Origin: Candidatus Krumholzibacteriia bacterium
GTDB lineage: Bacteria > Krumholzibacteriota > Krumholzibacteriia > WVZY01 > JAKEHA01
NCBI GenBank assembly: GCA_029865265.1
Contig: JAOUHG010000004.1
Span: 89,835 to 153,834, forward strand
Direction: 5' to 3'
DNA: 64,000 bases
Position 1 is the stretch's first letter, and the number at the start of each line of letters is the position of its first letter. The position numbers and the translations under genes are program-made. Under the pieces are notes generated by a model. The model searched no databases and was not told the origin of the DNA. It was given only the letters and a program-made list of their open reading frames with translations. Shown piece after piece: positions 1 through 46,983 of this stretch.

Positions 1-119
1 ACACGAAGGTGTGGGACGGTCGCAACGATGCCGGCCAGCCGGTGTCGAGCGGTGTCTACTTCTACAAGCTCGTGTCGAACAACTTCACGCAGACGAAGAA
101 GATGGTTCTTCTGAAGTAA
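1..119 (+). CDS. 3' end of a secreted protein, T9SS type-A-like C-terminal sorting domain (partial; gene starts upstream of window)
   Basis: Frame 3 reads ...TKVWDGRNDAGQPVSSGVYFYKLVSNNFTQTKKMVLLK* with stop TAA at 117-119. The W-DG-N ... SGVYFY-L ... K-rich tail matches the same CTD seen at the ends of 4639..5958, 11604..12707, 18109..32532 and 45283..46983. Confidence 0.5.
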   Translation, partial: TKVWDGRNDAGQPVSSGVYFYKLVSNNFTQTKKMVLLK

Positions 120-157
120 GGAGTTTCTTCGAACCCGAGTTCGTGGGAATTACGCAC

Positions 158-194
158 GGGGGTCGCATCGAAAGATGCGGCCCCCGTGTTTTTT
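158..194 (+). terminator. Rho-independent terminator after upstream CTD gene
   Basis: Stem gggggtcgcatc, loop gaaa, stem gatgcggccccc, then gtgtttttt T-tract, 40 nt after the stop at 119. Confidence 0.6.
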
Positions 195-365: not shown

Positions 366-429
366 TCAACCGCTTCAGCGCCAAGTCCCCAACCCAGATA
401 GCCCCACGCACGAAGGAGCCGTTCTTCGA

Positions 430-2310: not shown

Positions 2311-2316
2311 GGGGGA

Positions 2317-4638: not shown

Positions 4639-5958
4639 ATGCTAGGAGGAAGTTCTTTGACCCCATCCCGCTCCGCGGTCCGGGCGGTGATCGCTGCGAT
4701 CGCCGCCCTTGGATCGGTCACGGCTGTGCGCGCCCAGACGAGTGCGCCTGACTCGCTTGTTCTCCAGGTTCCAACCGACGTGGTGGCGCGGAGCGTATAT
4801 GATCGTGGCTCGCGGGACTTCGTGGTGTGGGTGACCTGGCGCGAGAGCCCCGACAGCATCGCCGCGGTTATTCACCAGCCGGATGTCTCCGGGTGGTCGG
4901 TGACCACACCGCCCGCCCAGCTCACCCAGCCGGTGGCGGCCGGAGCGTATAGCGGCGACACGGACCGAACAATCCTGTTCCGCTGCACGCGTGCGGGTGT
5001 GGTGGGCGTGGATTCGGTGCGCATCTCCTACGAGATCCGGCGTGAAGAATTCCTGTCCGGTACGTTGACGCTGACCCCGTCGTACGTGCCCGGTACCTAC
5101 CTTCCCGTCCCGTTTCGGAACCAGAACGACGGCCAGACCGTCGACTTCGGCATCCAACTGGCGTTTGGCTCCGGCAGCGCCGACCTGCAGGGGAGCTTCT
5201 CCCTGGGAGTCGAGGACTTCGAGGGCTTCCACGTCTGGCGCGGTATCGAGCCCGACGGCAGCGACATGGTGATCATCGGCGAGTTATCCAAGGAAGAGGC
5301 GTTCTACGGCTTCTCTCCCGGCGGGAGCATCGTCGACTCGGTGTATTTCTACATGATTCTCCCCGTGCTGCGTCAGCAGATGCCCTGGTTCTCGCCCTTC
5401 GGCGCGGTCGATTGTCTGGGCACGCGCATCGACCAGGATCTCGACCCGGACCAGTTGTTCTGGTTCGATTGCAACGCCACCAACGGATTCACCTACCAGT
5501 ATGCGGTCACCTCGTTCGACCGCGGATACAACATCGGGTCGAGTACGCAGGGGCTGGTCAAGACCGACCACTGTCCGGTCACGGAAGGTATGCCCTATCC
5601 CTGCAGGGACGAGCTCGTGCCGCTGGATATCCAGGTGGACGCGCAGAACGACCTCTACGACGTGTACGCGGTTCCAAATCCGTTTCGATCCGGCAGCAGC
5701 CGGCTCACCGCGGAGAACTATCACGACTTCCCGGACGACGTCATACGGTTCGTCAACGTTCCGCCCAGTTGTACCATCCGGGTCTACACCGTCGCCGGAG
5801 ACCTGGTGTGGGAGACGACCCACGACGCGTCCACCGGGAACGTCGAATGGGACGTGACCAACCAGAACTCGCAGGATGTCTCTTCGGGCGTCTACCTGTA
5901 CCGCGTGGACAAACCCAACGGGGCCTATGTCTACGGACGCATCGCCGTGATTCGCTGA
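4639..5958 (+). CDS. secreted protein with T9SS type-A-like C-terminal domain
   Basis: N-terminal signal peptide (AVIAAIAALGSVTAVRAQT). C-terminus reads YAVPNPFRSG...IRVYTVAGDLVWE...WDVTNQNSQDVSSGVYLYRV... Confidence 0.7.
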   Translation: MLGGSSLTPSRSAVRAVIAAIAALGSVTAVRAQTSAPDSLVLQVPTDVVARSVYDRGSRDFVVWVTWRESPDSIAAVIHQPDVSGWSVTTPPAQLTQPVAAGAYSGDTDRTILFRCTRAGVVGVDSVRISYEIRREEFLSGTLTLTPSYVPGTYLPVPFRNQNDGQTVDFGIQLAFGSGSADLQGSFSLGVEDFEGFHVWRGIEPDGSDMVIIGELSKEEAFYGFSPGGSIVDSVYFYMILPVLRQQMPWFSPFGAVDCLGTRIDQDLDPDQLFWFDCNATNGFTYQYAVTSFDRGYNIGSSTQGLVKTDHCPVTEGMPYPCRDELVPLDIQVDAQNDLYDVYAVPNPFRSGSSRLTAENYHDFPDDVIRFVNVPPSCTIRVYTVAGDLVWETTHDASTGNVEWDVTNQNSQDVSSGVYLYRVDKPNGAYVYGRIAVIR

Positions 5959-11138: not shown

Positions 11139-11607
11139 TCTCGCCATTTTCGGGCCTATTTCGGTCCTGCAGCTCATCAATCTGGAGCAATCCAGCGGGG
11201 AGCTCACGTTCGAGAGCCACGGCAATACCGCTCGCATCTACTTCGAGCGGGGCAGTGTTACCTACGCAGAAATTGCCGACCGCAAGATGAAGCTGGGCGA
11301 GTACCTGCTCGCGCAGGGGCTGATTACGCGCGAGGCGCTGGACCGGGGCCTCGACGCGCAGGGGTTGCGCCGCCGCCTCGGTGCTGTGCTGGTGGAGATG
11401 GGCGCCATCGACGCCACCGCACTCACCCGCGCCATCGAGGAACAGATCAAAGAGGTGGTATACGAAGTGGTCCGCTGGCGTGGCGGGCGTTTCCGTTTCA
11501 CCAGCGGGCGCAAGCCCAAGTCGCAGGACGTCTTCATCGACATTCCGCTCGACCACCTCATCCTCGAGGGACTCAAACGCCTCGACGAAGAGGGAGTGCG
11601 GCGGTGA
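11121..11607 (+). CDS. DUF4388-like domain protein
   Basis: LRGNLAIFGPISVLQLINLEQSSGELTFESHGNTARIYFERGSVTYAE matches the DUF4388 pattern (G.L..F.L..LLQ.L......G.L.......G.I.F..G.I.). Start is uncertain (GTG 11121, or earlier from 11023). Overlaps the end of the previous gene. Confidence 0.5.
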
Positions 11608-12707
11608 ACTTTCGACGACTGGCTCCCGGCCTCGTCGCGCTGATCGTCCTCCACCCCGCCACTGCCCTCGCCACCACGGCGGCCTCGCTTTCCGGCCGCA
11701 TCCACCTGGACGGACGCCTCGACGATTACGCCGCGGACGAGTGGATACTCGATGCCACCAGTGCGTTCCCCGAGCACGACGACGACTCGCGATGGGGCAA
11801 TGACAACGACGTGTCGCGCGTGGCAATCACCTGGGACGACGCGCGTCTCTACCTGGCGGTCGATTTCACCGCCGCGGCCACGGGCGTGATGGTGATGATC
11901 GGCAGCGGACCGGGGGGCATCGCGTCGCTCGATGCCACCGGGGATTTTCGCCGCGCCATCGACCTTCCCTTCGCACCCAACCTTCTGCTGCTCGCGACGC
12001 CCACGTCCGATCCGCTGGCGGCGCGCGCCGACGCCACCCACGCGTTCGGGTTGGTGGACCGCGCCACGCTCCCTGCCGTCGTGTCGTCGTCGGCGGGTGC
12101 CGCGGGGTTCGAGGCGTGGATCCCGTGGACGCTGCTGGACGTGTCGCGCCCGCTGCGCGTCGTGGTGGTCATCACCGGAGACGCCGCAAGCGGGGCGGGG
12201 GATGCGGCGCCGGACTCCCGCGTCGCGCTCTCCCAGGACCGTTACGCACGCGCCTCCCTCGACCGCTGGATCACGCTGACACCCGATGCCGACGGCGACG
12301 GCGGTGCCGACGCCGGCGTGGCCCCGCGCGCGGCGGCGAGCGTGCAGCCGGGCACCGCGCCGGTTGCCGAGCGCGGTGACGCGGGCATCGACATCTATGT
12401 CGACCCGGGCGCGTTCGCGCCCGACCGTGGCGAGAGCGCCGTGTTCACGGCATACTGTCCCGCTGGCCCCATGCAGGACGTGTCCGGAAGCTGCATCATA
12501 TTCGCCATGGACGGCCGCCGCATCCGCACCTTCCCGCTGTCGGCGGCGGGGCCGGTGGCAAACATGAAAGCGTCGTGGGACGGACGCGACGACGGCGGCG
12601 GCGCGTGCGACGCCGGCATCTACCTGGCAGCCTTCGACCTGGAGTTCACCGTGGACGGGACACGCCAGCAGGCCCGCAAGCGCAGCGGCGTTGCGGTGGT
12701 GAGATAG
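11604..12707 (+). CDS. secreted hypothetical protein with T9SS-CTD-like C-terminus
   Basis: Signal peptide LVALIVLHPATALATTA. C-terminus reads CIIFAMDGRRIRTFPL...ASWDGRDDGGGACDAGIYLAAFDLEF. GTG start overlaps the previous stop (GTGA). Confidence 0.6.
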   Translation: MNFRRLAPGLVALIVLHPATALATTAASLSGRIHLDGRLDDYAADEWILDATSAFPEHDDDSRWGNDNDVSRVAITWDDARLYLAVDFTAAATGVMVMIGSGPGGIASLDATGDFRRAIDLPFAPNLLLLATPTSDPLAARADATHAFGLVDRATLPAVVSSSAGAAGFEAWIPWTLLDVSRPLRVVVVITGDAASGAGDAAPDSRVALSQDRYARASLDRWITLTPDADGDGGADAGVAPRAAASVQPGTAPVAERGDAGIDIYVDPGAFAPDRGESAVFTAYCPAGPMQDVSGSCIIFAMDGRRIRTFPLSAAGPVANMKASWDGRDDGGGACDAGIYLAAFDLEFTVDGTRQQARKRSGVAVVR

Positions 12708-12709: not shown

Positions 12710-13591
12710 GTGCGGCGCGTGACGCGCTTGCTGGCCGCGTTGCTCATGGCCGCGGCGGTGCCCGCCCCGGCTCAGGCCTACTTTGAGAACGCACTCCTGT
12801 CCGCGCGCACCGCCTCGCTCGGCGGTGCGTTCGTCGCCATCGCGGACGATCCCTCCACGGTCATCGACAACGCGGCCGGACTCACCGGTATCACCGTACC
12901 GTCCTTCATGTTCACCTGGCAGAATCCATACGGGGTCGACGGCCTCGACGAGGGGTTCGCGTCCGCCGCGCTGCCCGCGGGCCCGGTGGCGCTGGGTGCC
13001 GCGTGGTTTCATCGCGGCCTGGACGGGGCGCTTTCCGAGGACATGCTCACGCTGTCGGTGGCCCGCGATCTCAAGCGCACCGCGGAGGATGCATCGCTCT
13101 CCATCGGTTTGAGCGTTGAGCTGGCGCGCGTTTCCGCCCGGGCCGGAATCGACGAGTCGGCCACCGCGTTCGGTCTGGGCGCGTCCGTGCTGCTGCGTCC
13201 CTTCGCATTCATCGGAATGGGCTACTCGCTGCAATCCGTCAACCAGCCCCAGCTCGACCTGGTTGCGGGTGGCACCTCGACACCGTTGCGCCGTACGCAG
13301 GCGGCGGGTCTGTCCTACTACTGGGACCAGCGGCTCACGGTGACGGTGGAGACACACGAGGGCGCCGATGGGATCTGGCGCGGACGCGGTGGCATCGAGC
13401 TCGACGCGAGCCGCCACCTCGCCCTGCGCGCCGGCCTCGACGATTCCCGCGCCACGGCCGGGTTCGGCGTGGCGTGGAAGCGGGTTGTGTTCGACGCGGC
13501 CATGCGCTCGCACGAGACGCTCGGTGCGAGCTACGTGGTATCGCTGCGCTACTCGCTCGCTTCCGGGGAGGTGTCGCGTGTCGCGCCGTGA
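12710..13591 (+). CDS. PorV/FadL-like outer-membrane beta-barrel protein
   Basis: GTG 3 nt after the previous stop. Signal peptide LLAALLMAAAVPAPAQA. Mature N-terminus YFENALLSARTASLGGAFVAIADDPSTVIDNAAGL matches the ..A.GGAF.A.ADDASA...NPAGL signature of PorV/PorQ/FadL-type barrels. Alternating beta-strand pattern throughout. Confidence 0.65.
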   Translation: MRRVTRLLAALLMAAAVPAPAQAYFENALLSARTASLGGAFVAIADDPSTVIDNAAGLTGITVPSFMFTWQNPYGVDGLDEGFASAALPAGPVALGAAWFHRGLDGALSEDMLTLSVARDLKRTAEDASLSIGLSVELARVSARAGIDESATAFGLGASVLLRPFAFIGMGYSLQSVNQPQLDLVAGGTSTPLRRTQAAGLSYYWDQRLTVTVETHEGADGIWRGRGGIELDASRHLALRAGLDDSRATAGFGVAWKRVVFDAAMRSHETLGASYVVSLRYSLASGEVSRVAP

Positions 13592-15053
13592 CGCAGCGCT
13601 CGTCGTGGTGGCGCTGGCCGTCCTCGCGGCGGCATCGCCCGTGGCCGCCGCCGGGGGCGACGGCCCGCTGGTTCCGGTTGCCGCGCGCGCGCGCCTCGAT
13701 TTGAATCTGGTGGCCGCCGAGGGCACCGCGCCGTGGAGCTGGGATGCGCAGTCGCGCTCGCCGCTGGACATGTCGCGCTTCATGGCCGACCTCACCGCGG
13801 GCGATGGCGGGATGGGCGTGCTCTACCTCAAGGGTGCCGCCAACTGGGACGATGCGGACGACGCGCAGGGCCGCGTTGCCTTCACCCTCGAGCAGGGCGA
13901 CTACCTGTACCGGCACGCGCTCGGCGGCGGCGTTCTGTCGGCGCGCCTGTTCGACGACGAGCGGCGCTACTTCACCGGGGAACTGGGCACGGTGCTCATG
14001 CAGGACGACGTGGTGCAGGCGTTCGAGCATCGCTTCGGTATCCGCGTGAACGCCACGCGCGGTTCCCTGGGCGCGGACTACCTGGCGTCTTCACTGGACA
14101 GCGGGCTTGAAACGCAGGTGCTGCAGCGTGGCGCGCTGCGCATGTCATCCACGTTTGCGCACGTGGGCGTTGCCTACCAGCACACCAATCCCGAACAGGG
14201 CGAGGATCGGGCGGTGGTTCAGGCGGAGGCGGCGGCGTACTACCGACGGCTGACCGGCATCGTCTCGTTTGCGCAATCCGGACCGGGCAGCGGGTTCTTC
14301 TATCCGTCGGGATCGTTCGATGCGGACGGAAACGGCTATGTGGCCGCGGCGCCGGAGAACTCGGCGACCTCCCTCGAGGCGCGTGTGCGCCGCCTGGCCA
14401 TCGACGACATCCGCCTGGACGCCATCTACCAGTACCAGGCCACCGGTGTGGCCTACGTCAATGAACTCTCCACCACGCGGCCGGGCAGCGAATCCAACAG
14501 TGCCGGCCTCTACGCCACGCACCGGCTCTATGCGGTGGAGGGGCGGCTGTTCTGGAAGGACGAAACGCGTTTCGAAATTGAAGAGGCGCGCGTGCGTTCG
14601 CTGGAAGCCAGCGCGCGCGCGTTCCTGCGCGACAACTCGCAGTTGCTGCTGCGCGCGGGCGTGCAGCGGCGCGAGTTCCAGGGCCGCGAGGAATCCAATG
14701 CCGGGCTGGTGCAGGGCGGCTATCGCCGCGAACTGCAGCGCTTCATGGGCGGGGTGCAGGCCATGCTGGCCGGCATCGGCGAAGACATCGCGCCGCGCGC
14801 GGGCGTGGAGGCGCGCCTCAACTGGAGTGCGACCAGCGCCCTGTACGCGCGCTGGATCGTTGCGGACGAGAGCGAGCGCGCCAGCGCCATCTACGCGCGG
14901 CTGGAGTTCCGCCCCACCGGCCGCACCTGGGTGACGGTGGCGTACGGGTGGGGAAGTGTGGGAGACGCGCCCGACATGCTGGATGACCGCGACGCCATCC
15001 CCGCCGCCGACACCCGCGACGTGGTCACCGTCACCGTGCGGGGGGATTTCTGA
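13578..15053 (+). CDS. putative outer-membrane beta-barrel protein
   Basis: GTG start overlaps the previous gene by 14 nt. Signal peptide VVVALAVLAAASPVAAA. Alternating amphipathic strands. C-terminal ...TVRGDF (terminal Phe is typical of OMP barrels). Confidence 0.55.
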   Translation: MSRRDAALVVVALAVLAAASPVAAAGGDGPLVPVAARARLDLNLVAAEGTAPWSWDAQSRSPLDMSRFMADLTAGDGGMGVLYLKGAANWDDADDAQGRVAFTLEQGDYLYRHALGGGVLSARLFDDERRYFTGELGTVLMQDDVVQAFEHRFGIRVNATRGSLGADYLASSLDSGLETQVLQRGALRMSSTFAHVGVAYQHTNPEQGEDRAVVQAEAAAYYRRLTGIVSFAQSGPGSGFFYPSGSFDADGNGYVAAAPENSATSLEARVRRLAIDDIRLDAIYQYQATGVAYVNELSTTRPGSESNSAGLYATHRLYAVEGRLFWKDETRFEIEEARVRSLEASARAFLRDNSQLLLRAGVQRREFQGREESNAGLVQGGYRRELQRFMGGVQAMLAGIGEDIAPRAGVEARLNWSATSALYARWIVADESERASAIYARLEFRPTGRTWVTVAYGWGSVGDAPDMLDDRDAIPAADTRDVVTVTVRGDF

Positions 15054-17038: not shown

Positions 17039-17048
17039 GAAACGCGGT

Positions 17049-17836: not shown

Positions 17837-17899
17837 TCGGGGTAATTCCCCCGGATTCCGCGTCGGGGTGTGGGGTTTCCGCTGATTCCTCGTGGGGTA

Positions 17900-17928
17900 T
17901 TGCGCGCGGCGGCGGGTGCTGGTAGCAT
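17900..17928 (+). promoter_or_regulatory. candidate promoter TTGCGC-N17-TAGCAT in 273-nt leader of the giant gene
   Basis: Sigma70-like spacing. Followed by an AT-rich patch tagtagttaatcaacc in GC-rich surroundings. Confidence 0.3.
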
Positions 17929-18108
17929 AGTAGTTAATCAACCCACAGCTCCAAGGGGCCGCCGCGGTGTGAGTTTGCCCGCCATGGTTGCCCAGGTGCC
18001 GGGCCTGCACGCGCGGGGCATGGGAGTTGCACGTTTGCCCTTAGGAACGTTCCGCCCCCACCCCGGTATTTGCAGATGCTCCCGTCCGTGAACAGGAATT
18101 TTGACGCA

Positions 18109-30100: not shown

Positions 30101-32532
30101 GCGGCGCGAGGGACTCGCTCGTCTATGAGGTCGTGTCGACCGGCGCGCAGGTTGGCCTGGTCGACATCACCGCTCCGGTGGCGGGGACGGACCGCAACCA
30201 GCCCGCCAACAAACCGGCCGCGAGCGGTACCGCGCAGGTGACGGTGCAGCCCGCGGCCGGGCTGTCGATCCTCTCGACCGCGACCGTGGGGACCGTCAAC
30301 CACGCGACCGCCAACCGCGACACGGTCAACACGAACTTTGCATACGAGATTCACGTGACCGTGCAGAATCTGGGCGAGGCGGTGGACAGCGTGCTGGTCA
30401 ACCTGAGCACCGACCTGGCGTTGAATATGTCGGATATCCAGGCGGCGAGTTCCATCCGTCAGCAGATCGACGCCGATTCGCTGAAGACGTTCGTGTTTAA
30501 TGTCACCTCGCCGAGTGTGTCGACGCCGCTCGAGACCTTCACCGCCACCATCGCAGCGGGTGTGGTATCGCGCAACTCCGGCCAGCCGGTGACGCCCCAG
30601 CCGCCCATCGATGCGACACAGGTGGTGGTGGCGCAGCGGCCGGCGAACCTGGTGACGACCCTGGCCATCACGTCGCCGCCGACGGCCGTTGGCGGTACCG
30701 TGAGCCCCGGCCAGCAGTTCCAGGTGACGGCGCGGGTCAACAACACCGGCCAGGCGCTGGTCGGCGGCGCCGCCGAAGTCGAGTTGACGCTCCCGACCGG
30801 GTTCACGACGACCGACAACACGACACGCCCGTTTGTCGCCAACCAGCCGGTGGTGTGGAGCATCACGGCACCCGGTGCGGAACAGCCGGCCGACACGTTC
30901 CTGTGCGCGATCACGACGCGGCCGATCGATGTGAATACGGGGCAGGTGGCGTCCGCGTCCGTCCCGAGCTCTGTTCTCCTGGTGACCGTCGGCAGCGGCG
31001 GCGGCATGACGTCGCCGACGGTGAGCATCATCGGCCCCACCGGGGCAATCGATGGCACCATCAGCGCCGGGCAAACATTCACCGTGGACGCGTCGGTGGT
31101 TGCGACGCTGGACACGGAGAATATCGTGGCGACGATTGCGTACCCACCGGGCTTCTCCGTGTCGGGCAGCCCGGACCGCGCCATGGGCAACGGAACCGGC
31201 GCCGCGGTTTCCATCAACCCCAAGTACACCGTCACCGCGCCGGCAGTACCCGGCGGCGCGGATATCTATGTCACCTTCGTTGGCACGGACGCAAACTCGG
31301 GCGATCCGGTGTCCGCGGTTGACACCCTCCGGGTGACCGTGGTGCCGGTTGCGTCGCTCTCCGTCAGCGCGGGCATCACCGGCCCGCCCGAGGCCACCGA
31401 TGGAAGCGTGGGGGTGTCGACGCCATTCGTGGTCGAAGCGACGGTGGACAGCCTTGCGGGTACCGCCGGCGTCAGCGGACTCGCGACCATCAGCATCACG
31501 CCGCCCGCCGGCTACACCCTCGACGCGGGAAGCGCCATCGAAAACTTCACCGTCGGTGTGCCCGTGCAGTGGACCTTGCGCTCGCCAGCGATACGCACGC
31601 CGACGCCCGGTCAGATCCAGTTCCGCATCGAGACCATCCCGGTGGACGAGAACAGCGGCCAGACCGCGCAGGTGACCGCGCGCACGGCATCCATCGCCAT
31701 TCTCACCGAAGGCGCCACCGTGGCCGTCACCGAGGTCTCAAGCGGCCTTGGCCTCAACGACGGGCCCGTGCCCGGGGGAACCGCCGGCATCAGCCTGCTC
31801 GGCCTGCGCATGGCGTACAACGCCTCCGACGCCAACGCGCCCGACGCGGCCATCGACAACATCGCCGTTACCGTGTTGGACAAGAACGGCCAGCCTCTGG
31901 GCAACAGCACCCTCGCGCAGACCCTCAAACGTCTCACCGTCGACCTTGGCGCGCAAACCTACGAGGTCGTCGATCCGTCCGCGAACCCCGTCATGGTGGA
32001 TCTCACCGGCGGCGGCATCGACCGCATCATATTGCCGGACAGTTTCGTCACCGCCGTGGTCGGCGTCGACCTCGATGCGTCGCCGAAGGTAACCGAGTTC
32101 AGCGTGGGCATCCGCAACGGCGGCGTCACCGTGCGCGACACCGGCTCGGGCCAGAACCTCAGCATCACCGATGGCAACGGCAATGCGCTCGACGGGCAGA
32201 TTACGTCGGATCCCTTGATCGTGCTCTCCTCGAGCTTCGAGGAGTACGTGCACAACTATCCCAACCCGTTCCGGGCCGGGACACAGTCGACCAGGATCAC
32301 CTACCTACTCGACCAGCCCAGCGACGTGACCATCAAGGTCTACTCGATGACCGGCGAGCTGGTGTGGGAGGAGAGCATCTCTCGCAGCGATCCGGGCGGA
32401 CAAGCCGGCGCGCAGGAGGCCGAGTGGGACGGCCGCAACGGCAGCGGGGAAGTCGTGCGCAACGGTGTCTACGTGTGCGTGCTCAACGCCGGATCCAGGT
32501 CGGCGAAGTTCAGAATCGCGGTGGCCAAGTGA
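18109..32532 (+). CDS. giant (about 4,808 aa) repeat-rich surface protein: Ig-like repeats, CARDB-like repeats, T9SS type-A CTD
   Basis: Uninterrupted 14.4-kb ORF. ATG 18109 gives signal peptide MNLPRLPRVITLAATLSLAWAG (TTG 18070 and ATG 18076 are alternatives). At least 14 repeats of the type V.ARDA.GNPV.GQ.VTF, then about 20 repeats of the type V.N.GGA.V.LDL.... C-terminus NYPNPFRAGTQSTRITYLL...TIKVYSMTGELVWEE...VRNGVYVCVLNAGSRSAKFRIAVAK. Confidence 0.85.
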   Translation: MNLPRLPRVITLAATLSLAWAGVPAAAPGSGTAIISPTTIAAGSSGTWTITYTATEPFKDGTVRLTIPAGWTAPQNGSPVSPGYVSVSTNEPTGNPSLALGGSLITVTVDTLTAANTITITYGVGPTGLAQAATNDSTYTFEIASDPAGTATALIATSPTVQVNPAAPAYLTVAPDDTTVTAGDFAHYRLFVFDTFGNRSPLPSSRTVNFFPTHGQFYLTDDATPIGSVVIPAAQSSVEVHYRATLATTGTPHQLGALTLTGSPQLGGSADVSVVAGPLSTGNSLISATTPVVADGISQSSVEVTSRDAFGNPRQGDTVTLGVDGNADPTDPGPTTDGNGKTSGVVTDETAETVTVSAFINAQLIAATAPIDFVAGGVSGVTSTVDATTPVVANGVATSTITVTARDAQGNPVSGQVVTLALLPTANAVLTQPGGVTNGLGQVTGTLTSTVPGPRTITAVIGVTPLIDNAVVNFNSGPLASFQWTEVDGNAVAGVAETVRLTAKDALGNTVTGYTGTVTLTASSAGSGTVAWASLGINSTVPAGNNTATYTFAPGDNGTLQLSVTDTRAESIQLTATDGVPTGTSASILVGAATADKVVFDAGNNQSATVNTSVGTPPRVLVTDFYNNPVAGATVTFRVITTVTGVGSVDVTAGGGVDSTGTTDAGGYVDCDVWRMGINAGNNRLRALISSGSVPGFTFNATGTAGAENTLSLSPPSQSVTVGAFQVVTATLTDAFGNPKPNTRVDIAITAANGGTLEADPGHTTTQLSPTARWGNTDAAGVTTVRFRAPSTAGLPNTVDASTSVIGQGSVADVVYTSSASGATNLRITFQGASTAAAGTSIEFLVEAIDGNQNVDVTNTSQVNLTPQVGSTLAFSLDDLTFETTQFNLQSGARTIYARATMAGDWNITVDGSGLGPDTKQVSITDTGAIDHYVVTTVPSVVAGVTFDVSVQARDVYDNLVVGANNVVNLVAIDDVTTNPALSTLLVAQTTLSGGLATQAETYTRAELMRVRASASGKEGISGVVNVAAAPAYRIAKISGDNTGVAVSAPQLLEAQVLDAFDNPVAGQSVTFVVIGGGGSVLPGAPSTGAAGTAQTTLTTGSTPGNNLVKATILDENPASLERVDYLVETVPGGVAYFTVVPAKFNPIAGEAVNLTVTAFDAEDNVVSDDNTTQIQLSSGSGTVQFGVATGTLAAGVFSTTVTDNIAEQYTVTAELFGGGVPTGTSAPVTVGHAPAFAVVYVSGNASGVAAGSQQVLQVRVRDAYTNPVPGQPVTFAVASSPGGATITDAVGDPNDGITTTNAAGLAQATLNTSAVSGTNQVNARILDGLPPDHLVPFTVDTSPNSATTLRITFLGPTTVAAGQTSSFKVEALDAGQNLDTSNTSLITLTPQTGSNLDFSLSDFAGGLTQFNLVGGTRTIYVQGTKTGSWNITVDDGPGGLASDTKGITVNDAGVVDHYVVTAPSNAVAGATWNVLVEARDVYDNKVTGASNLVNLAAVLASDSTSLASSSLSVGQATLTGGSVVVNEFYTRAQGIRVRVRDAGSKEGFSGTVQIGAAIAYQVVNVSGDGIDIVAGTTRTLTGRVVDSYNNPVQNQTVSFTAVSGGGDFAGGTTAQSDINGTVVKGFNTGNVVGINVARASILDGNPIGVETTDFTVSTKAGALDNYEVVPVDPLKINLVANETTSVIARARDQYNNYRIQDNTTVVGLTATGSAVLGSAGGTLVNGAFTTTVRDDVAETFTVTAETGLDSGTSNPFTVSPGPPYRIVKVTADPVNGLPVGLQQPLVSEVRDEWNNAVGAGVSVTHLIVQAPDPSAYLRDAVGDTTDGITTTAANGRATALLGPANTAGLNRVSATILDGSPSGLERVTYDVNTVAGGIAKYQVTMGATSATAGTAVSVSVQALDANDNPVADNGTQVDLAGNPGAGLIFAANPLTLSGGTASTTVTASLVQTYAIKASSVLQPAVSGQGASVVVSPAAPAGVITATATADVITANGSSVTTLTSSVIRDAFLNQVPAGGGVTVTTSGGVILGTQPKIIGANGRVSFDLRSSTTPGPVTVSMTSVAGTAFGQKVIQFAQPVAFNTSQGPVPSIVKPGDNLRFRVVVANTSSTAANLTTATRFAFADGVHTFTAFLAAPKTVAAADTATLVFNNTTLDAAFASGAYTPVVTLIGNDQYGSAFNVSSPLPLNAVQVTSIEITLISAPSPVSRGQTRNVSVSVRNNGATPASLNNLTLSFSPGVGVYTPGTPSPALPVQIAAGNTATVVIPVTIETASGLGTDQIDAFAEATVGGQPVTDDSADPHPLGSWQIVAQASLVYAPGSLTPPAASRGKSYGFQMAIQNTGSGVVSLSPALTRLTFTDGSLNFSAAPVQAYAIPGGATQVLTFVDTAIPGGFAAGPVDVVLDAQGTDNGAPFTQLVSTAGSGDQLNIVTPAVLSAVAGTLSPVLTTQGATATFQVAVNNTGGATVDLFPATTTLSFTGFNASLDPTGPTSIGPLGNTTLRFIGTPVSAGSTPPGNYFPQIDVDGTENGLDYGASFASPSSVNVQAAPDILIAAILPSQTTITTDQARRIQVRMVVQNSGGATVSFTSASIRMFSGAVERTAQFGIAPPSAFQGGGNLAPASVDTLLFQVTDVAGPMSAGPLTIEGLLNVEDTATSQPITTNTSNGGKGALSVQTPATINILAVTPSLPTVTAGMDRDFTIRALIRNGGQSDVNVNAAAATLQFTPPGGWVRTPRATLGSGSNLLQGGEVDTLIFDVTTSGSVTGMVGIDATVGGTESNSARTFSNASSGAGSIVVQTAGNIVVSVVSSRATITSGASVPWTLSVTVQNTGGADVNLDLGAAVLVSFGDATTPPVPSVPPVLAGGGTLLSGGETDQFVIGVPVAGVYGTLGPQNMQVLVTGTELNSTVDKFDSDAASVIVQAAPDVAYISLTPSPVAKGVSVPFAVTVRNPVANGATLTLDPVTTRLQFAGGAFDAGLAGGPVTLAALEQKTLLFNSTVVPGGIQSVSQDDAELILNWTENGRSGSNTVEITDGDIEVQEAPELGIVSLIASRATVTAGQTSPTWTVDMVVRNLGGLPVDIDLAADSTYLVMNLLQGGLDVSDEYTIAQPTKLESAGGTLLGPSLTDTLRFTVQQAGLTEGIVIISGLVTGHENSTVVMGNTDAGGTGSFELQARGELAIRSITPARTTATVGQTSTYRIRMAVENTGGAAIDLDLTKPNTDLGFSNSGWLTTLDGNLAGGGVTLSGGEVDTVTFTVDTTGGPAGVVTISGVVAGEETNTAAPKFADTTSGGTGSITLQGAAALSIINVAGSRASITENTGVPWTIDVDVRNTGGAIAQLNLPGGVSASVQDGAVSFAPVVTLQGGGSSLAPGQTGRLVFQATANGAFTSYGAKIITIDVNGSDTNSGDPLNAASNSASILVQKAPVLQLAGFDPFTVTSGANARFNVRVSNPDADAATVTFDRGNTRVHFAAGAYSAFLDLNSPVAIPGGEDTTLVFEDKTVVSSIPLGKYDFNANLAYSANGVPVTFAPSLLDTLSVQAAPTLSIDQIEASRTTVTAGQQADWTVTMTLRNSGTQPITLDLAPAATYLTFVAPGAQVDGGYLVIPPPGLQNAGGVVLGAGLTDVLLFTIDQTGSLTGPVTINGRVRGLVGGVTEVLDDTFDGGRGNVNVQSAAAAAITAIRATQPRVTAGQSAVWGIRVILANSGSSAVDLDFPGLAITFDGADPPTAGWGVTPPTALLSGGSTLAGGSVDSLVFTVEVTGPAGTPAVGVEIPYIEVNTQQADTLLSGGYQPVVVETPPSLHILTTNLLAPNAPNVNVGQGYSVAVNVENSGGAAARDVQLEVESGNGWSTITGVAPIPLVGGAGQTVLVPIPATADTAGLDLLTARIVSALDDNSGEAAPVVIDGDTTEAVNVQTPAQLTVVLVSTSQASVTQGQSNPWNVIVTVENGGGADLDLTAPTNDDLVFRRGAIQNDYSVVPPTAFASGNPAWRLAGGARDSLVYEVVSTGAQVGLVDITAPVAGTDRNQPANKPAASGTAQVTVQPAAGLSILSTATVGTVNHATANRDTVNTNFAYEIHVTVQNLGEAVDSVLVNLSTDLALNMSDIQAASSIRQQIDADSLKTFVFNVTSPSVSTPLETFTATIAAGVVSRNSGQPVTPQPPIDATQVVVAQRPANLVTTLAITSPPTAVGGTVSPGQQFQVTARVNNTGQALVGGAAEVELTLPTGFTTTDNTTRPFVANQPVVWSITAPGAEQPADTFLCAITTRPIDVNTGQVASASVPSSVLLVTVGSGGGMTSPTVSIIGPTGAIDGTISAGQTFTVDASVVATLDTENIVATIAYPPGFSVSGSPDRAMGNGTGAAVSINPKYTVTAPAVPGGADIYVTFVGTDANSGDPVSAVDTLRVTVVPVASLSVSAGITGPPEATDGSVGVSTPFVVEATVDSLAGTAGVSGLATISITPPAGYTLDAGSAIENFTVGVPVQWTLRSPAIRTPTPGQIQFRIETIPVDENSGQTAQVTARTASIAILTEGATVAVTEVSSGLGLNDGPVPGGTAGISLLGLRMAYNASDANAPDAAIDNIAVTVLDKNGQPLGNSTLAQTLKRLTVDLGAQTYEVVDPSANPVMVDLTGGGIDRIILPDSFVTAVVGVDLDASPKVTEFSVGIRNGGVTVRDTGSGQNLSITDGNGNALDGQITSDPLIVLSSSFEEYVHNYPNPFRAGTQSTRITYLLDQPSDVTIKVYSMTGELVWEESISRSDPGGQAGAQEAEWDGRNGSGEVVRNGVYVCVLNAGSRSAKFRIAVAK
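18970..24220 (+). repeat. array of divergent bacterial Ig-like (Big/invasin-type) domain repeats within the giant gene (protein-level periodicity about 100 aa)
   Basis: Recurring V(T/Q)(A/S)RDA(F/Q/Y)(G/D)NPV.G(Q/D).VT(F/L) motifs at roughly 300-nt spacing. Approximate boundaries. Confidence 0.5.
24340..30700 (+). repeat. array of CARDB/DUF11-like domain repeats within the giant gene (about 110-130 aa period)
   Basis: Recurring V(R/Q/E)N(T/S/G)GGA.V(D/N)L(D/N)L and ...L.F(T/S)... motifs. Approximate boundaries. Confidence 0.45.
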
Positions 32533-34415
32533 TGAAACCCGTGACGCGCATACTCTGTGTGGTGACAATGGCCTGCCTGTGCATCCCGGGGACGGCACGT
32601 GCCCAGGACGCCGGCACCCAGAGCATCTTCTCGCTCGGCGCCGGCTCGCGCGGCATCGGGCTGGGCAACGCGTTCGTCTCGCTCGCCGACGACGCCAGCG
32701 CGGTGTACTGGAACCCCGCCGCGCTCAAGAACGCCGGCTCCATGCAGTTCATGGCCATGTACATGCCGCTCTACGGCGACTTCACCGGCGCCGACTACAC
32801 GTACTTTGGCTTCGTCTACCCGACGCTGTCGGCGGGCGCCTTCGGCGTGGGCTACACGCGCGTGGGAACCACCTTCGATTCCTACGACGAGCAGAGCCGC
32901 CCGCTGGGTGAGGGCAACTACTCGGAGAGCCAGCTGCTGTTCTCCTACGCCTTCGAGCGCCACTCGGGCTGGTTCCTGGGCTCGCTGGCCATGGGCGCGA
33001 GCTTCAAGATCAACCGCCAGATCGTGGATCCGTACTCGAGCACCGCGCCCGGCGTCGACGTGGGCTTGCGCTGGATTCCCGACGCGGCCAAGTCGCTCTC
33101 CATCGGTGTGAACCTGCAGGACGTGGTGGGCGCGCAGTACAAGCTGGATCTCAACGAGGACACGGTCTACCGCACCATCCTCATGGGCGCGGGCTGGACC
33201 CGGAACTTCGACAACGGGTCCGCGCTGCGCCTGATGTTGCAGTACGACATGCCCGAGGTGGCCGATGCGCGCTTCCACGCGGGCGCGGAGTACGCGTTCT
33301 CCAAATTCATCGCGTTGCGCGCCGGTTACGACAAGGACGTGGTCACCTTCGGCCTGGGTGTGGGCGCGTTCAACTACGGGCTGGACTACTCGTTCTACTC
33401 GCGCGACGAGGCCGGCTCCAACCAGGGCGTCACCTTCACCGCCCGTCTTGGCAAGTCGCTTGCAGAGCAGCGCGCGGAAATCGCCGAGCAACAGGCCCGG
33501 GAGGAGAGCGAACTCATCCGGCGCACCTTCGAGGCGCGGGTGGCGGCGCACAAGAAGACGGCGCGCGAGCTGGAGGCGCAGGGGGACTGGTCCGGGGCGC
33601 TGGGCGAATGGCGCATCGTGCTGGAGTACGTCCCCGACGACCAGGATGCCATCGAGGCGGCGGATGCGGCTCGAGCCCAGGTGGTGGCGCAACAGGCGGC
33701 CGCGGTGCGCGACGTCGAGACGCAGGCCGCCATTCGCACCCGCTTCGCGCGCGGGCTGGACCTGTTCAACCAGGACGATCTGCTGGGCGCGCGCGGCGAG
33801 TGGCTCGCCGTCCTGCAGATCGACCCGGGCAACCAGGGCGCGCAGGACTACCTGGCGCAGACCAATACCAAGATCAACGTGGCGGTTGGTTCACACATCG
33901 CCAACGCACACGCGCTCGAGTCGCAGAACCGCCTCACCGAGGCCATCGCGGAGTGGAACAACGTGCAGCAGTACGACCCGCAGAACGCCGAGGCGAGTGC
34001 CGCCATCGCGCGCATCCGCACGCGCATCGAGTCGGTCAGCCAGGACTACGCCACCTCGCAGCGCCGGCTGCGCATCGTGACGCTGTACAACGACGCCCTG
34101 CAGGATTACAACGCGGGGAATTACCAGGTGGCCATGACCAAGCTCAACGAACTCCTGCTCCTGCAACCCAACCACGAGGACGCGAAGAAACTGCAGGCGC
34201 TCACCAAGCGCCGCATCACGCCGTTGACCGACCAGGAGAAGTCGCGCGTGCGCGAACTCTACCTGGCCGGCATGCAGCACTTCTCACGGGACGAGTACGC
34301 CCAGGCCATCACCGAGTGGCAGAAGATCCTGGAGATTGATCCCACCAACGAGAGCGTTCAGCGCAGTATCGACGAGGCCCGCGAGCGTCTGCGCAAAGTC
34401 CAGGAACGGAAGTAA
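32532..34415 (+). CDS. PorV-like outer-membrane beta-barrel fused to C-terminal TPR-like domain
   Basis: ATG 32532 shares one nt with the giant gene's TGA (32530-32532). Signal peptide ILCVVTMACLCIPGTARAQ. IFSLGAGSRGIGLGNAFVSLADDASAVYWNPAALKNAG is the PorV/FadL-type signature. About 300 aa of barrel, then about 320 aa of TPR-like helical repeats (EWRIVLEYVPDDQDA..., GEWLAVLQIDPGNQGAQDYLA..., AITEWQKILEIDPTNESVQ). Confidence 0.75.
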   Translation: MKPVTRILCVVTMACLCIPGTARAQDAGTQSIFSLGAGSRGIGLGNAFVSLADDASAVYWNPAALKNAGSMQFMAMYMPLYGDFTGADYTYFGFVYPTLSAGAFGVGYTRVGTTFDSYDEQSRPLGEGNYSESQLLFSYAFERHSGWFLGSLAMGASFKINRQIVDPYSSTAPGVDVGLRWIPDAAKSLSIGVNLQDVVGAQYKLDLNEDTVYRTILMGAGWTRNFDNGSALRLMLQYDMPEVADARFHAGAEYAFSKFIALRAGYDKDVVTFGLGVGAFNYGLDYSFYSRDEAGSNQGVTFTARLGKSLAEQRAEIAEQQAREESELIRRTFEARVAAHKKTARELEAQGDWSGALGEWRIVLEYVPDDQDAIEAADAARAQVVAQQAAAVRDVETQAAIRTRFARGLDLFNQDDLLGARGEWLAVLQIDPGNQGAQDYLAQTNTKINVAVGSHIANAHALESQNRLTEAIAEWNNVQQYDPQNAEASAAIARIRTRIESVSQDYATSQRRLRIVTLYNDALQDYNAGNYQVAMTKLNELLLLQPNHEDAKKLQALTKRRITPLTDQEKSRVRELYLAGMQHFSRDEYAQAITEWQKILEIDPTNESVQRSIDEARERLRKVQERK

Positions 34416-39639: not shown

Positions 39640-39682
39640 TCATGTTGTGGACGGATGGCGCAAGTCGTATAGTAGGGGAGTC

Positions 39683-40819: not shown

Positions 40820-40850
40820 CTCTTGCTTATGCCGGGGTTGAGGCAAACTC

Positions 40851-41249
40851 ATGGAAAAACTGATTATCTCCGAAGAGCGTACCAACGCTGCCAACCCGGT
40901 TTCCGTGCTTACCCTGCGCGGTACCATCGAGACGACCAATGCCTCGGGACTCGAGGAGACGCTGGAGCGGATCGTCAACGAGAGCTGCTACCGCATCGTC
41001 GTCGATCTGGGCAGTGTCAGCTACATCAGCTCGGCCGGGTGGGGCATCTTCATCAGCGAGATCAAGCGCATCCGGCGCAACGGCGGCGACATCAAGCTTG
41101 CCGGCATGATGCCCGAGGTGCGCGAGGTATTCGATCTGCTCGAGTTTGGCAACATACTGAAACCGTTCATGAAGACGTCTGAGGCGATTCGTGACTTCGA
41201 AGTTGCGACCGACTCGGGAACACAAGGCGGACCGGCCGGTCGCCGATAG
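40851..41249 (+). CDS. STAS-domain anti-sigma-factor antagonist (RsbV/SpoIIAA-like)
   Basis: SVLTLRGTIETTNASGLEETLERIV...RIVVDLGSVSYISSAGWGIFISEI...DIKLAGMMPEVREVFDLL. Confidence 0.85.
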   Translation: MEKLIISEERTNAANPVSVLTLRGTIETTNASGLEETLERIVNESCYRIVVDLGSVSYISSAGWGIFISEIKRIRRNGGDIKLAGMMPEVREVFDLLEFGNILKPFMKTSEAIRDFEVATDSGTQGGPAGRR

Positions 41250-41284
41250 CGCGCGCGGCGGTCTCATTGCGGGGGATCAAGACC

Positions 41285-41659
41285 ATGGCTGTTGATGGAA
41301 TCGTAGTCAGCGTCACAACCGGCAGTAACGGCGCGGGCGTCTCCGTGCTCAAGGTGAGTGGCTACCTGGACACGACGACCGCGAGCGAACTCGAGACGGC
41401 GCTTTACGGCCTGCTCGATCGCGAGTCGTACCGTATCGTGGTGGACCTCTCCGGCGTCAACTACATCAGCTCCGCTGGCTGGGGCATCTTCATCGGTGAG
41501 ATCAAGCGCATCCGCAACCACGGTGGCGACCTCAAGCTGGCGGGCATGGTGGGCGACGTCCACGAGGTGTTCCAACTGCTCGAATTCCACTCCATCCTGG
41601 AGGCTTTCGGGACCACCGCCGAGGCGATTGACGCATTCAAGTCGAAGAGCGCCGGCTGA
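41285..41659 (+). CDS. STAS-domain anti-sigma-factor antagonist, paralog of previous
   Basis: ATG 41285 preceded by GGGGGA (TTG 41267 is an alternative). VLKVSGYLDTTTASELETALY...RIVVDLSGVNYISSAGWGIFIGEI...DLKLAGMVGDVHEVFQLL. Confidence 0.85.
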   Translation: MAVDGIVVSVTTGSNGAGVSVLKVSGYLDTTTASELETALYGLLDRESYRIVVDLSGVNYISSAGWGIFIGEIKRIRNHGGDLKLAGMVGDVHEVFQLLEFHSILEAFGTTAEAIDAFKSKSAG

Positions 41660-42944: not shown

Positions 42945-42978
42945 GGCCCCGCCCCTTTTTAGGGCATCACCGGCAGGG

Positions 42979-45210: not shown

Positions 45211-45282
45211 CCGCCCCGGCTGTTTTACGGTTGCGCCGGGGAGCCGCGCGCGCTACACTGCCATGCGAGGTGGTGGTGTGGT

Positions 45283-46983
45283 ATGGGCGGGGTTCTTCGT
45301 TTCTTCCTCCCTTTCTTTCTTCTCTGTGCATGTTTCGGTGCCGGTCGCGCGTTCGCGCGTGTCGTCATCAACGAGGTCTATTACGATCATCCCGGCGCCG
45401 ACGCCGGCTACGAGTTTGTCGAGCTGATCGACACCGATGGCGCTGCGGCGGACATCGGCGGTCTGACGCTCGAGTTCCACAATGGAACCGGAACCGGTTG
45501 GGTGGTGTTGTGGCGCGCGGAACCCGGCGTGACGATACGTGCGGGCGAGCCGTTCCTGCTGGGTGACGCGATGGTGTCGCCTGCCCCGGACGTTCTCACC
45601 ACGTTGTCGCTGCAGAACGGACCGGATGCCCTGCGCATCGTGGACGCGAGTGGCGCGGTGCTCGACGTGGTCGGTTACGGCGGACTGGACGATGCCGCAT
45701 ACACGGAGACGCGCGGTGCCGCGGTGGTCGCGGCGGGCATGTCGATTGCGCGCGTGCCGGACGCCAACGACACGGGCGACAACGCATCCGACTTCGCGGC
45801 CGCGGCACCCAGCCCGGGCCGTTTCAACGTCCCGCGCCGCGATGTCGCACTGGCGCTCGCGCCGCCCACGCCCGCGCTGCTGGGTCGCGACGCGCCGGGC
45901 GAGGAGCGCATTGCGCTCGAGGTGGTGAACACCGGCGTGCTGGCCGTCGACGCGGGGCAGGTGCGCGTGGCCATTGCCGACTCCACGGAGGCGGGGAGTG
46001 TCGAAGCCGCCGTGGTGGTCAACGCGGCCGTCATTCCACCCGGTGGTGCGGAGCGTGTGGAGCTGCGGGTGGCGCTTTCGCTCGGGTTCCACCGGCTCGC
46101 CGCCACCGCGGGCTATCCTGCCGACGAACGCGGCTTCAATGACACCGTGGTGTTGCTGCGGCGCGTCGGGCGGGTCCCGGTTCTGGTGAGCGAGGTGTGG
46201 AGCGCGCCGGCGCCGCAGTGCCCGCAGTTCGTGGAGGTATTCAACGCCGGCGACGCGCCGGTGGACGTGGGCGGTTGGCGGTTGCGGGACATGCGCGCGC
46301 AACCGGTTCCCATTGCGGCGGACTCGCTGGTCATCGCACCGCGCGGCTTCCTCGCCGTATCCGCGAGCCCGGCGGCACTCATCGCGTGCGTCCCGCAGAC
46401 GCCGCCGGGTTCGGTGGTGGGGGTGGACGGATCGTGGCCGTCGTTCAACCGCTCGGGCAGCGGGGTTGCGGACAGCGTCGTCGTGTCCGACCGGCACGGG
46501 ATCCCGGTGGAGGCGGTCGCGTATCCGCCGCTTCCCACCGGCATCAGCGGCGTGAGCATCGAGCGCGTCGACCTCTACCCGGGCGCGCGCGCCCCGGTGT
46601 GGCGCCTCTCACCCGCCGCGCAGGGTTGCTCGCCCGGGCGTCCCAACGGCGCGTCGCTCTACGACCCGCCGGTGGAAGGCGAACTCGACGTCGAACCCAA
46701 TCCGTTCGCGCCCGCGCGCGGCGACGTGCTGCGCATCGCCGTGGCGGCCGGGGCCGGTGTGGCGCGGGTGGTGGTTTCGGTATTCGATATGACGGGGCGC
46801 CGTGTGGCCGACGTCGGCAGCGCGTTCGCGCTGCCGGCCGTGTTCCTGTGGGACGGGCGCGACCGCAGCGGACACACGGTTCGTCCCGGTCTGTACGTGG
46901 TGGCGTGCGAAGAACTCCTGGCCGACGGCACGCGGGGGACGGTGCAGAAGGTGGTGGTGGGGTGTGCGGGCGCGGCACGGTAG
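45283..46983 (+). CDS. secreted protein with two lamin-tail (LTD) domains and T9SS-CTD-like C-terminus
   Basis: Signal peptide FLPFFLLCACFGAGRAFA. INEVYYDHPGADAGYEFVELIDTDGAAADIGGLTL and VLVSEVWSAP...QFVEVFNAGDAPVDVGGWRL are LTD signatures. C-terminus DVEPNPFAPARGDVLRI...VFLWDGRDRSGHTVRPGLYVVACEE. Confidence 0.7.
   Translation: MGGVLRFFLPFFLLCACFGAGRAFARVVINEVYYDHPGADAGYEFVELIDTDGAAADIGGLTLEFHNGTGTGWVVLWRAEPGVTIRAGEPFLLGDAMVSPAPDVLTTLSLQNGPDALRIVDASGAVLDVVGYGGLDDAAYTETRGAAVVAAGMSIARVPDANDTGDNASDFAAAAPSPGRFNVPRRDVALALAPPTPALLGRDAPGEERIALEVVNTGVLAVDAGQVRVAIADSTEAGSVEAAVVVNAAVIPPGGAERVELRVALSLGFHRLAATAGYPADERGFNDTVVLLRRVGRVPVLVSEVWSAPAPQCPQFVEVFNAGDAPVDVGGWRLRDMRAQPVPIAADSLVIAPRGFLAVSASPAALIACVPQTPPGSVVGVDGSWPSFNRSGSGVADSVVVSDRHGIPVEAVAYPPLPTGISGVSIERVDLYPGARAPVWRLSPAAQGCSPGRPNGASLYDPPVEGELDVEPNPFAPARGDVLRIAVAAGAGVARVVVSVFDMTGRRVADVGSAFALPAVFLWDGRDRSGHTVRPGLYVVACEELLADGTRGTVQKVVVGCAGAAR

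Follow-up and report, generated by a model that had tools for sequence, protein, structure and literature searches.

Five related tails at protein C-termini

A 64-kb stretch of contig JAOUHG010000004.1 from a Candidatus Krumholzibacteriia bacterium (positions 89,835 to 153,834; the whole stretch is referred to here as the window) encodes five proteins with tails that resemble the C-terminal domains (CTDs) of type IX secretion system (T9SS) cargo, and the genes for three of them are followed directly by a gene for a putative PorV-type outer-membrane barrel. The overall G+C content of the window was ~67% (0.61-0.74 in 2-kb bins), and the third-position GC pattern indicated that the + strand carries nearly all of the real genes. 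The five open reading frames (ORFs) for the tail proteins, referred to below as cargo, showed a coding-type third-position GC content (GC3) of 0.82-0.86, and the N-terminus of each protein was signal peptide-like, as judged by inspection.

The first of these proteins, cargo 1 (3..119; + strand, as are all of the cargo and barrel genes described here), is represented in the window by the last 38 residues of a 1023-amino-acid (aa) protein that begins upstream, and it ends in a canonical T9SS type A-like CTD. The 4639 protein (4639..5958) is a CTD protein of 433-439 aa, with a gene call beginning at 4657, a tail at ~5671-5955, and no barrel gene after it. Cargo C (11604..12707) is a protein of 367 aa, in which a passenger without known domain precedes a divergent CTD-like tail (12390-12704). 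The giant adhesin (18076..32532; alternative start at 18109) is a protein of ~4818 aa built from Big_1/Invasin_D3 repeats (Big_1, E 8e-30, nine stretches), and its CTD lies at 32245-32529. The fifth protein (45283..46983; 566 aa) contains two lamin-tail domains (LTD; E 1.8e-20) and is referred to as the LTD protein; it carries a divergent CTD-like tail (46696-46980) with two invariant Cys residues and a short C-terminal extension.

Each tail comprised a domain of ~90 residues at the extreme C-terminus, homologous across the five proteins, that followed the pattern (P)NPF ... V.V.D..G..V ... WDGR(N/D)..G..V..G(V/I)Y ... hydrophobic strand ... K/R. Hidden Markov models (HMMs) of the tail were built from the orthologue tails of three classes (giant adhesin, LTD protein, and cargo C). 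When these models were searched against the 735 six-frame ORFs (≥40 aa) of the window, only the four complete cargo ORFs were matched, and the matches terminated 0-9 residues before the stop codon. Cross-class matches had E values of 4e-12 to 0.09, compared with E≥0.12 for the best unrelated ORF in the window; the giant-tail HMM matched the 4639 protein at E 5e-8. Profile-profile alignment with hhalign linked the giant tail to the LTD tail (96.9%, E 1.8e-10) and to the cargo C tail (98.2%, E 6e-14), and the LTD tail to the cargo C tail (98.6%, E 9e-16). The five tails were thus assigned to one domain family, and a chance pattern was excluded because the profiles cross-match and because the extreme C-terminal position is exclusive to the cargo among the ORFs of the window.

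Conservation of the tails was also examined in orthologues. The giant's tail was 55-73% identical across 10 orthologues, compared with 36-58% over the final 400 residues of the protein taken together, and it invariably ended in ..(I/M)AVAK. For cargo C, the motif ..FAPDRGE..WDGRD..G..V.GG.Y..AVAVVR was present in all 63 of the 63 orthologues; seven orthologues of the LTD protein were compared. A Lys or Arg was kept 5-10 residues from the C-terminal end in every tail class, the ends reading ..KFRIAVAK, ..KKMVLLK, ..GRIAVIR, or ..(K/R)(V/T)VVGC.., with a basic cluster in cargo C (e.g. ..ARKRSGVAVVR). This conserved basic residue matches the near-invariant Lys in the last strand of type A CTDs, which contacts PorV (PMC10994853). 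As a separate observation, the LTD-class tail contained its two invariant Cys residues in ..ACE.. and ..VVVGC.. and extended 4-9 residues past the last strand, and the giant's tail (32245-32529) contained one invariant Cys (..Y(V/I)C..). These cysteines may form a disulfide inside the tail or with a partner.

The tails were then scored with curated models (cut-offs: TIGR04183, 23 bits; PF18962, 27 bits; FlgD_ig [PF13860], 27 bits; CHU_C [PF13585], 27 bits). Two of the five passed TIGR04183, namely cargo 1 (24.4 bits on the 38-aa fragment, and 41.7 on the full protein at L026:6619-9687) and the giant (24.9), which also passed FlgD_ig (34.4). The full-length cargo 1 protein has precomputed matches to both PF13860 and PF18962; every sequence from the window itself remained under the PF18962 cut-off. 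The 4639 protein scored 19.7 with TIGR04183 (orthologues, 17-19), and it matched two further models locally, in each case over the CTD portion: PorZ (E 1.4e-9) and PorU (E 7.9e-6). More generally, orthologues of the tail proteins scored like the window copies on the curated models. With the type B CTD model TIGR04131, no tail matched at E≤1, and the scores with CHU_C (25.6 for the 4639 protein, then 20.2 and 14.1) were all under the cut-off.

A search of the PDB with the giant's tail as a single sequence returned marginal FlgD matches only, and a profile was required. When a 24-sequence profile covering all tail classes was searched against all PDB chains, the best match was the CTD of PorU (6za2_A, residues 1062-1153 of 1156, E 1.1e-8), followed by the CTD of PorZ (5m11_A, residues 674-757 of 758, E 5.4e-8). 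Both matches lay at the chain terminus and spanned profile positions 2-93, nearly the full profile. FlgD Ig domains came next (E 8e-8 to 5e-7), with partial matches restricted to profile positions 17-83, and the cleaved type A CTDs of NucA and RgpB reached E values of only 0.05-0.06. By these profile comparisons, the tails belong to the CTD/FlgD_ig superfamily and are T9SS-like in their position and end motifs; among solved structures they are closest to the CTDs of PorU and PorZ, which are of the retained kind, and FlgD comes after these.

Barrel genes coupled to the cargo genes

The gene directly after the giant adhesin (32532..34415) encodes a protein of 627 aa, here called PorV-TPR, which consists of a signal peptide, a conserved N-terminal motif, a barrel, and a tetratricopeptide repeat (TPR) domain. 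The 14-stranded barrel was predicted at residues ~71-306 (to approximately nt 33450), and the all-alpha TPR domain at residues 310-626 (nt 33459-34409). Because it is located after strand 14, the TPR domain should be periplasmic. Against the PorV_fam model NF033709, PorV-TPR scored 89.3 bits (cut-off 90; E 3.4e-25) over model positions 7-319 of 326, and 27 of the 66 orthologues reached E≤2e-25, which corresponds to the ~90-bit cut-off (best, 4.9e-33); one orthologue was named PorV/PorQ family protein by NCBI. An AlphaFold (AF2) model built on 66 sequences had a pLDDT of 82, and its top Foldseek matches were the PorV chains of the Flavobacterium johnsoniae translocon (8gl6_F, E 2.5e-9; 6h3i_F, E 3.8e-8; TMt 0.55-0.57). 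FadL followed after PorV, and BamG was found at rank 45. A single-sequence PDB search with PorV-TPR returned TPR matches only, and a profile was again required: with a profile of the barrel, PorV was the sole sequence match in the PDB (E 1e-4), and the identity of chain F as PorV was confirmed. The predicted extracellular hairpin tips were conserved like the whole barrel (0.77-0.82 vs 0.72, with the topology assumed). On this evidence PorV-TPR is classed as a PorV/PorQ-family member that is an orthologue of neither PorV nor PorQ.

Barrel 2 (12710..13591), which begins with a GTG after the cargo C stop codon, is a predicted outer-membrane barrel of the PorV/PorQ family with 293 aa. It matched the PorV-TPR barrel by hmmsearch (E 2.9e-19) and by hhalign (99.3%, E 6e-21, 243 columns). 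Barrel 2 and its orthologues scored 28-39 bits on PorV_fam and contained the N-terminal motif, and barrel 2 scored 16.2 on the PorQ model. These profile matches indicate that barrel 2 is a paralogue of PorV-TPR.

Barrel 3 (46964..47725; alternative GTG at 46997) is a minimal 14-stranded outer-membrane barrel of ~250 aa, of which the barrel itself accounts for ~230 residues. Its AF2 model (pLDDT 88.8, pTM 0.80) showed 14 strands, and the top Foldseek match was PorV (6h3i_F, E 1e-6, TMq 0.61-0.65). The PorV N-terminal motif was absent and there was no match to PorV_fam NF033709. A sequence tie to the PorV barrels was dropped as proof, given that it was based solely on a common AGYDDG motif, and the fold was used instead. 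Judging from the model, barrel 3 is probably a third PorV-type member, which we regard as unproven. No barrel of the window matched PorP_SprF (PF11751) at E≤1; among 120 barrel orthologues, two had precomputed PF11751 matches.

All three barrel genes were tightly coupled to the cargo genes upstream (spacing, -20 to +2 nt). The stop codon of cargo C (12705-12707) and the GTG of barrel 2 at 12710 are separated by 2 nt; the TGA of the giant adhesin and the ATG of PorV-TPR at 32532 share 1 nt; and barrel 3, read from its best start (46964), shares 20 nt with the end of the LTD gene. The two remaining tail proteins, cargo 1 and the 4639 protein, have no adjoining barrel gene. The adjacency of the giant adhesin and PorV-TPR was found in all 11 genomes compared, that of the LTD protein and barrel 3 in 8 of 8 (the two most distant included), and that of cargo C and barrel 2 in 3 of 3 (including L028 and L029). 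Tails and barrels also diverged in parallel: the barrel most like PorV went with the most canonical tail, that of the giant, and the two tails that diverge most were paired with the two most divergent barrels.

The initial annotation of this stretch had described T9SS CTD-like tails on five proteins and PorV-like genes directly after the cargo at 12710 and 32532. The former was borne out, at the coordinates given there, by the tail HMMs, the hhalign comparisons, and the extreme C-terminal position in each protein, and the latter by the PorV_fam score, the match between the two barrels, and the tight junctions. Its count of two PorV-adjacent cargoes was incomplete: both are real, but the third barrel gene, after the LTD protein, had been overlooked.

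As a further observation on these proteins, the signal peptides of PorV-TPR (32532-32610), barrel 3 (46964-47040), and the 4639 protein (4639-4740) end in A-x-A followed by Q, and the mature N-terminus would be Gln. This pattern resembles the 'Q-rule' of Bacteroidota (PMC5837995); there are too few cases here to judge.

Gene order and neighbouring genes

The relatives in which the region was found were named Candidatus Krumholzibacteria or -iia, with a Latescibacteria label on some metagenome-assembled genomes, and contigs from ENA and JGI metagenomes encoded proteins identical to those of the window. At NCBI, Latescibacteria are placed in the Fibrobacterota-Chlorobiota-Bacteroidota (FCB) group, and the lineage of Krumholzibacteriota has no FCB-group node; we take Krumholzibacteriota to be an FCB-affiliated candidate phylum. 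The names of these relatives support the earlier suggestion of a high-GC, FCB-affiliated lineage.

Gene order was retained in ~17 species-level genomes, with protein identities of 40-90%. In the first half of the region, the conserved order was lipoprotein, lipoprotein, CTD protein, ALDH, PPDK, CDP-alcohol transferase, PatA_N, cargo C, barrel 2, X, Y (with CBM48), two CBM48 lipoproteins, and giant adhesin. From the giant adhesin it continued with PorV-TPR, a giant partner-switching protein (RsbW-HAMP-PP2C-3×STAS), ParA, a small ORF, a TPR protein, STAS, STAS, a VWA membrane protein, the LTD protein, barrel 3, a lipoprotein, an aminotransferase, and purD. Because it is syntenic in these related genomes, the region is core chromosome rather than an island; a horizontally acquired cargo island was ruled out, as the entire region is syntenic class-wide. 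The enrichment in cargo put forward in the initial annotation stands as a conjecture. In locus L028 (OY970173.1, a complete 3.2-Mb chromosome; 16835-21110), the giant adhesin was annotated as a 993-aa gene plus more fragments, which may reflect frameshifts of the long-read assembly instead of biology.

Between cargo 1 and the 4639 protein, two large lipoprotein-like proteins (430-4629; 626 and 767-770 aa) were found without a family match. The trio of this lipoprotein pair and the 4639 CTD protein was conserved in L028 and L029.

Downstream of barrel 2, in an operon with cargo C and barrel 2, two conserved exported proteins are encoded (13578..17038, + strand): X (491 aa) and Y (661 aa). X belongs to no known family and ends in ..VRGDF, like an outer-membrane protein; Y consists of an N-terminal CBM48 domain and 550 residues without known family. 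Two small CBM48 lipoproteins come after Y, so that the set spans 13578-17836, and both the synteny and the overlap of gene ends recur in L028 and L029. Apart from CBM48, family and PDB searches with X and Y gave no matches. Both were considered as further barrels or translocators and rejected, given that hhalign gave no link to the PorV barrels and no PDB relatives were found. The N-terminus of Y was likewise rejected as a 'T9SS plug', since the match (E 1.4e-3) ran via the Ig/CBM48 domain only.

A partner-switching cluster occupies 34417-41659. It begins with a 1407-aa protein composed of an RsbW-like kinase, HAMP, a SpoIIE/PP2C phosphatase, an HTH-like segment, and three STAS domains, and continues with a ParA-like ATPase, an ORF of 90 aa, a TPR protein of 372 aa, and two STAS proteins of one domain each. 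This order was kept directly downstream of PorV-TPR in ~17 genomes, and the partner-switching/ParA cluster may serve to regulate the adhesin system or to position it. A 365-aa ORF (41774-42871) located between the STAS and VWA genes has a Cys-rich N-terminus and gave weak HTH matches only. This ORF was the only window-specific insertion; because it was absent at this position in all relatives, save for a trace at the end of the L008 contig, it is probably a mobile-element insertion. Lastly, a protein of the OmpA family is encoded at 57686-59632, in which thrombospondin type 3 repeats occur together with a MetA-like barrel segment. Its real start probably differs, because the exact product matched no record, and it was rejected as a candidate PorE, the match being confined to the generic OmpA domain.

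Proposed role of the barrels and comparison with known systems

Beyond the established homology of the tails, the family and fold of the barrels, and their conserved tight adjacency, we infer that the cargo binds to the barrel, that the CTD is retained, and that a translocon exists. On balance, and with little more than even confidence, we lean towards the reading that, in T9SS-type export, each barrel serves the adjoining cargo as its cognate carrier or anchor in the outer membrane. The cargo would cross the outer membrane via a T9SS-type translocon encoded elsewhere; extracellular parts of its own barrel would then capture the CTD, which would remain bound and uncleaved, such that the protein is held on the cell surface. 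This retention is proposed by analogy with PorU on PorV, PorZ on PorQ, and type B CTD proteins on PorP/SprF. The periplasmic TPR extension of PorV-TPR may link the barrel to periplasmic partners, and cargoes without an adjoining barrel would use a general PorV-type carrier. Private pairs are favoured over a shared shuttle because each of the three different barrels is coupled to a cargo of its own, because tails and barrels diverge in parallel, and because the CTD of the giant is more conserved than its last 400 residues and the predicted hairpins of PorV-TPR are conserved like its barrel.

A number of observations weigh against private carrier pairs, and they are best considered together with the alternatives to which they lend support. 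The barrels might instead be general machine parts, which we view as a credible but rather less probable arrangement: PorV-TPR would be the general PorV-type shuttle (or PorQ equivalent) of this lineage for all CTD cargo, its position would reflect an operon habit like that of porU and porV, which we take to be adjoining genes in P. gingivalis, and barrel 2 would be a second general component. The two CTD proteins without an adjoining barrel must use a shared carrier in any case. PorV-TPR is itself a single orthologue of high conservation, with 52-97% identity over the full length across the class, a level that would suit a general, essential part of the machinery as well. On the equivalog models, it scored higher for PorQ (NF033711, 51.7; cut-off 220) than for PorV (NF033710, 22.1; cut-off 250), and both cut-offs were failed. 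Moreover, type A CTDs have been described as all being handled by PorV (PMC12618676). Yet a general shuttle needs no three linked versions, and here three different barrels are tightly coupled to different CTD genes, with an adjacency kept in every genome examined and a divergence of the barrels that parallels that of the tails.

More of the adverse evidence concerns the tails themselves, and it would suit a reading in which there is no secretion role at all. In that case, which we judge to be improbable, the tails would be ordinary FlgD_ig Ig modules for adhesion or structure, the barrels would be FadL-type channels or other 14-stranded proteins (compare BamG), and the adjacency would be inherited synteny. 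The tails had been described in the initial annotation as type A-like, with TIGR04183 among the checks; cargo 1 and the giant passed it, but the 4639 protein, the LTD protein, and cargo C all remained under the cut-off. Placement in the T9SS CTD/FlgD_ig superfamily was upheld by the PorU and PorZ CTDs being the closest relatives, but scored singly, two of the five tails gave at most weak, generic FlgD-Ig hits, an outcome that the initial annotation had named as refuting its reading: the LTD protein scored 20.3 with FlgD_ig (below 27) and 13.4 with TIGR04183, and cargo C alone yielded nothing significant against the curated libraries and no TIGR04183 match. In the PDB search, FlgD scored near PorU and PorZ. 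The domain is also very widespread, as expected for a generic fold. A profile of the window tails only, searched against 1.84 billion representative proteins, returned 167,121 matches at E≤1e-3 and 6,083 at E≤1e-10, and the top matches carried 4-18 internal tandem copies, some with subtilase or beta-propeller domains. The barrels offer comparable support to this reading, given that FadL and OmpG are close structural matches: for barrel 3, OmpG and FadL were nearly equal to PorV with similar TM scores, and the sequence tie of barrel 3 to the PorV barrels was weak (hmmsearch, E 0.41; hhalign, 24% and 31%). FadL-fold barrels with non-T9SS roles are known from the β-barrel assembly machinery (BAM) of Bacteroidota (PMC12578637). 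Nonetheless, the domain in the window is always single, terminal, and basic-ended and occurs on signal-peptide proteins, and the PorU/PorZ matches cover the full domain at chain termini. PorV came first for both modelled barrels and was the sole sequence-level PDB match, with BamG far down at its rank of 45, and the overlapping gene ends argue for co-expression.

The translocon that cognate carriers would depend on is a further point of weakness, and the type IX-like route put forward in the initial annotation stands as a conjecture. With NCBIfam and Pfam models, no porK/L/M/N, sov/sprA, or porU was found among 29 ORFs searched in the 64-kb window or in a 10-kb left flank, which is the part of the genome that was scanned. 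Among the 1.84 billion representatives, the tail-profile search yielded eight terminal-hit candidates for PorU without a C25/PorU catalytic match, a result that is uninformative on the core. Literature searches found no report that links Krumholzibacteriota to T9SS, and reviews state that T9SS may occur in other FCB phyla, with nothing further (PMC11285876, PMC11205867). Together with the two additional conserved exported proteins and the CBM48 lipoproteins in the cargo C operon, these results would fit self-contained export, in which each barrel, perhaps with X and Y in the case of cargo C, exports or assembles its neighbour without a canonical T9SS translocon, like two-partner systems. We consider this very improbable. 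Protein conduction is not known for a 14-stranded barrel of the FadL fold, and PorV itself acts as a carrier and not as a pore (PMC10994853); no relation of X or Y to any translocator was detectable; and the CTD type is that recognised by T9SS in related phyla.

Knowledge of T9SS comes almost entirely from Bacteroidota, where type A CTDs are said to share PorV and private PorP/SprF barrels are described only for type B. What is new here is the finding of gene-linked PorV-family barrels for type A-like CTD proteins outside Bacteroidota, including a PorV-TPR fusion, and for this tail type the arrangement looks undescribed. A wider proposal, which we offer tentatively and hold to be doubtful, is that type A-like CTD proteins of Krumholzibacteriia each have a private, gene-linked PorV-family carrier, the PorV-TPR fusion and the minimal 14-strand barrel included, and that the logic of cognate carriers is general and older than Bacteroidota; in its stronger form, the pairs would work without a canonical T9SS translocon. 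If cognate pairing is true, carrier specialisation would be suggested as a general design rule, and natural cognate pairs would be available for studying CTD discrimination. In uncultured lineages of the FCB group, a protein could then be annotated as likely surface-anchored where its divergent FlgD_ig-like tail is followed by a small 14-strand barrel.

Of the known systems, the FlgD hook-cap Ig domain (PF13860) belongs to a common fold family with the tails, FlgD chains being the next-best PDB matches and the giant's tail passing PF13860. However, the window proteins have neither the FlgD N-terminal domain nor a flagellar context, their tails lie at the extreme C-terminus of exported proteins, and the PNPF start and basic end fall outside the FlgD matches. 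Canonical type A proteins resemble the cargo more closely, having a Sec signal, a C-terminal domain of the 7-strand type, a PNPF-like start, a G.Y motif, and a basic residue near the end. In the canonical system, a single PorV serves all type A CTDs, and PorU cleaves most of them (PMC12618676, PMC5562754), whereas three of the window cargoes have gene-linked barrels and three of the tails are too divergent for the curated model. The remark in the initial annotation that not every T9SS cargo is known to have a dedicated neighbouring PorV paralogue was apt, linked barrels being described for type B (PMC12618676). Cognate PorP/SprF barrels, often gene-linked, carry and anchor the type B CTD proteins, SprB and PG1035 among them (PMC9143113, PMC12618676), and a barrel of this type is needed for both secretion and anchoring of the cargo (PMC9143113, PMC12618676). 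The likeness to SprB-SprF of F. johnsoniae and to PG1035-PorP is one of arrangement: a cargo, often a giant adhesin, is gene-linked to its own PorV-like barrel, and the giant adhesin with its downstream barrel mirrors sprB-sprF. The components differ, however, in that the window tails have no TIGR04131 match and remain below the CHU_C cut-off, and the barrels are of the PorV/PorQ family.

In the attachment complex of the Porphyromonas gingivalis T9SS, PorU:PorV and PorZ:PorQ form sub-complexes (PMC5562754). PorU and PorZ are the two T9SS proteins with uncleaved CTDs, and they stay bound to PorV and PorQ, respectively (PMC5562754, PMC10202324), the CTDs being retained on their cognate PorV-like barrels (PMC10202324). 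The passengers there are a sortase or a carrier of anionic lipopolysaccharide (A-LPS), whereas those of the window are a giant Big_1 adhesin, an LTD protein, and a 367-aa protein. The barrels differ as well, being under the PorV and PorQ equivalog cut-offs, one with a 320-residue TPR domain and one minimal and without the PorV N-terminal motif, and the lineage lies outside Bacteroidota. In both settings, however, the components correspond: in PorU-PorV and PorZ-PorQ, a retained type A-like CTD is held on a 14-stranded barrel of the PorV/PorQ family, and in the window the tails are closest to the CTDs of PorU and PorZ, and the barrels to PorV.

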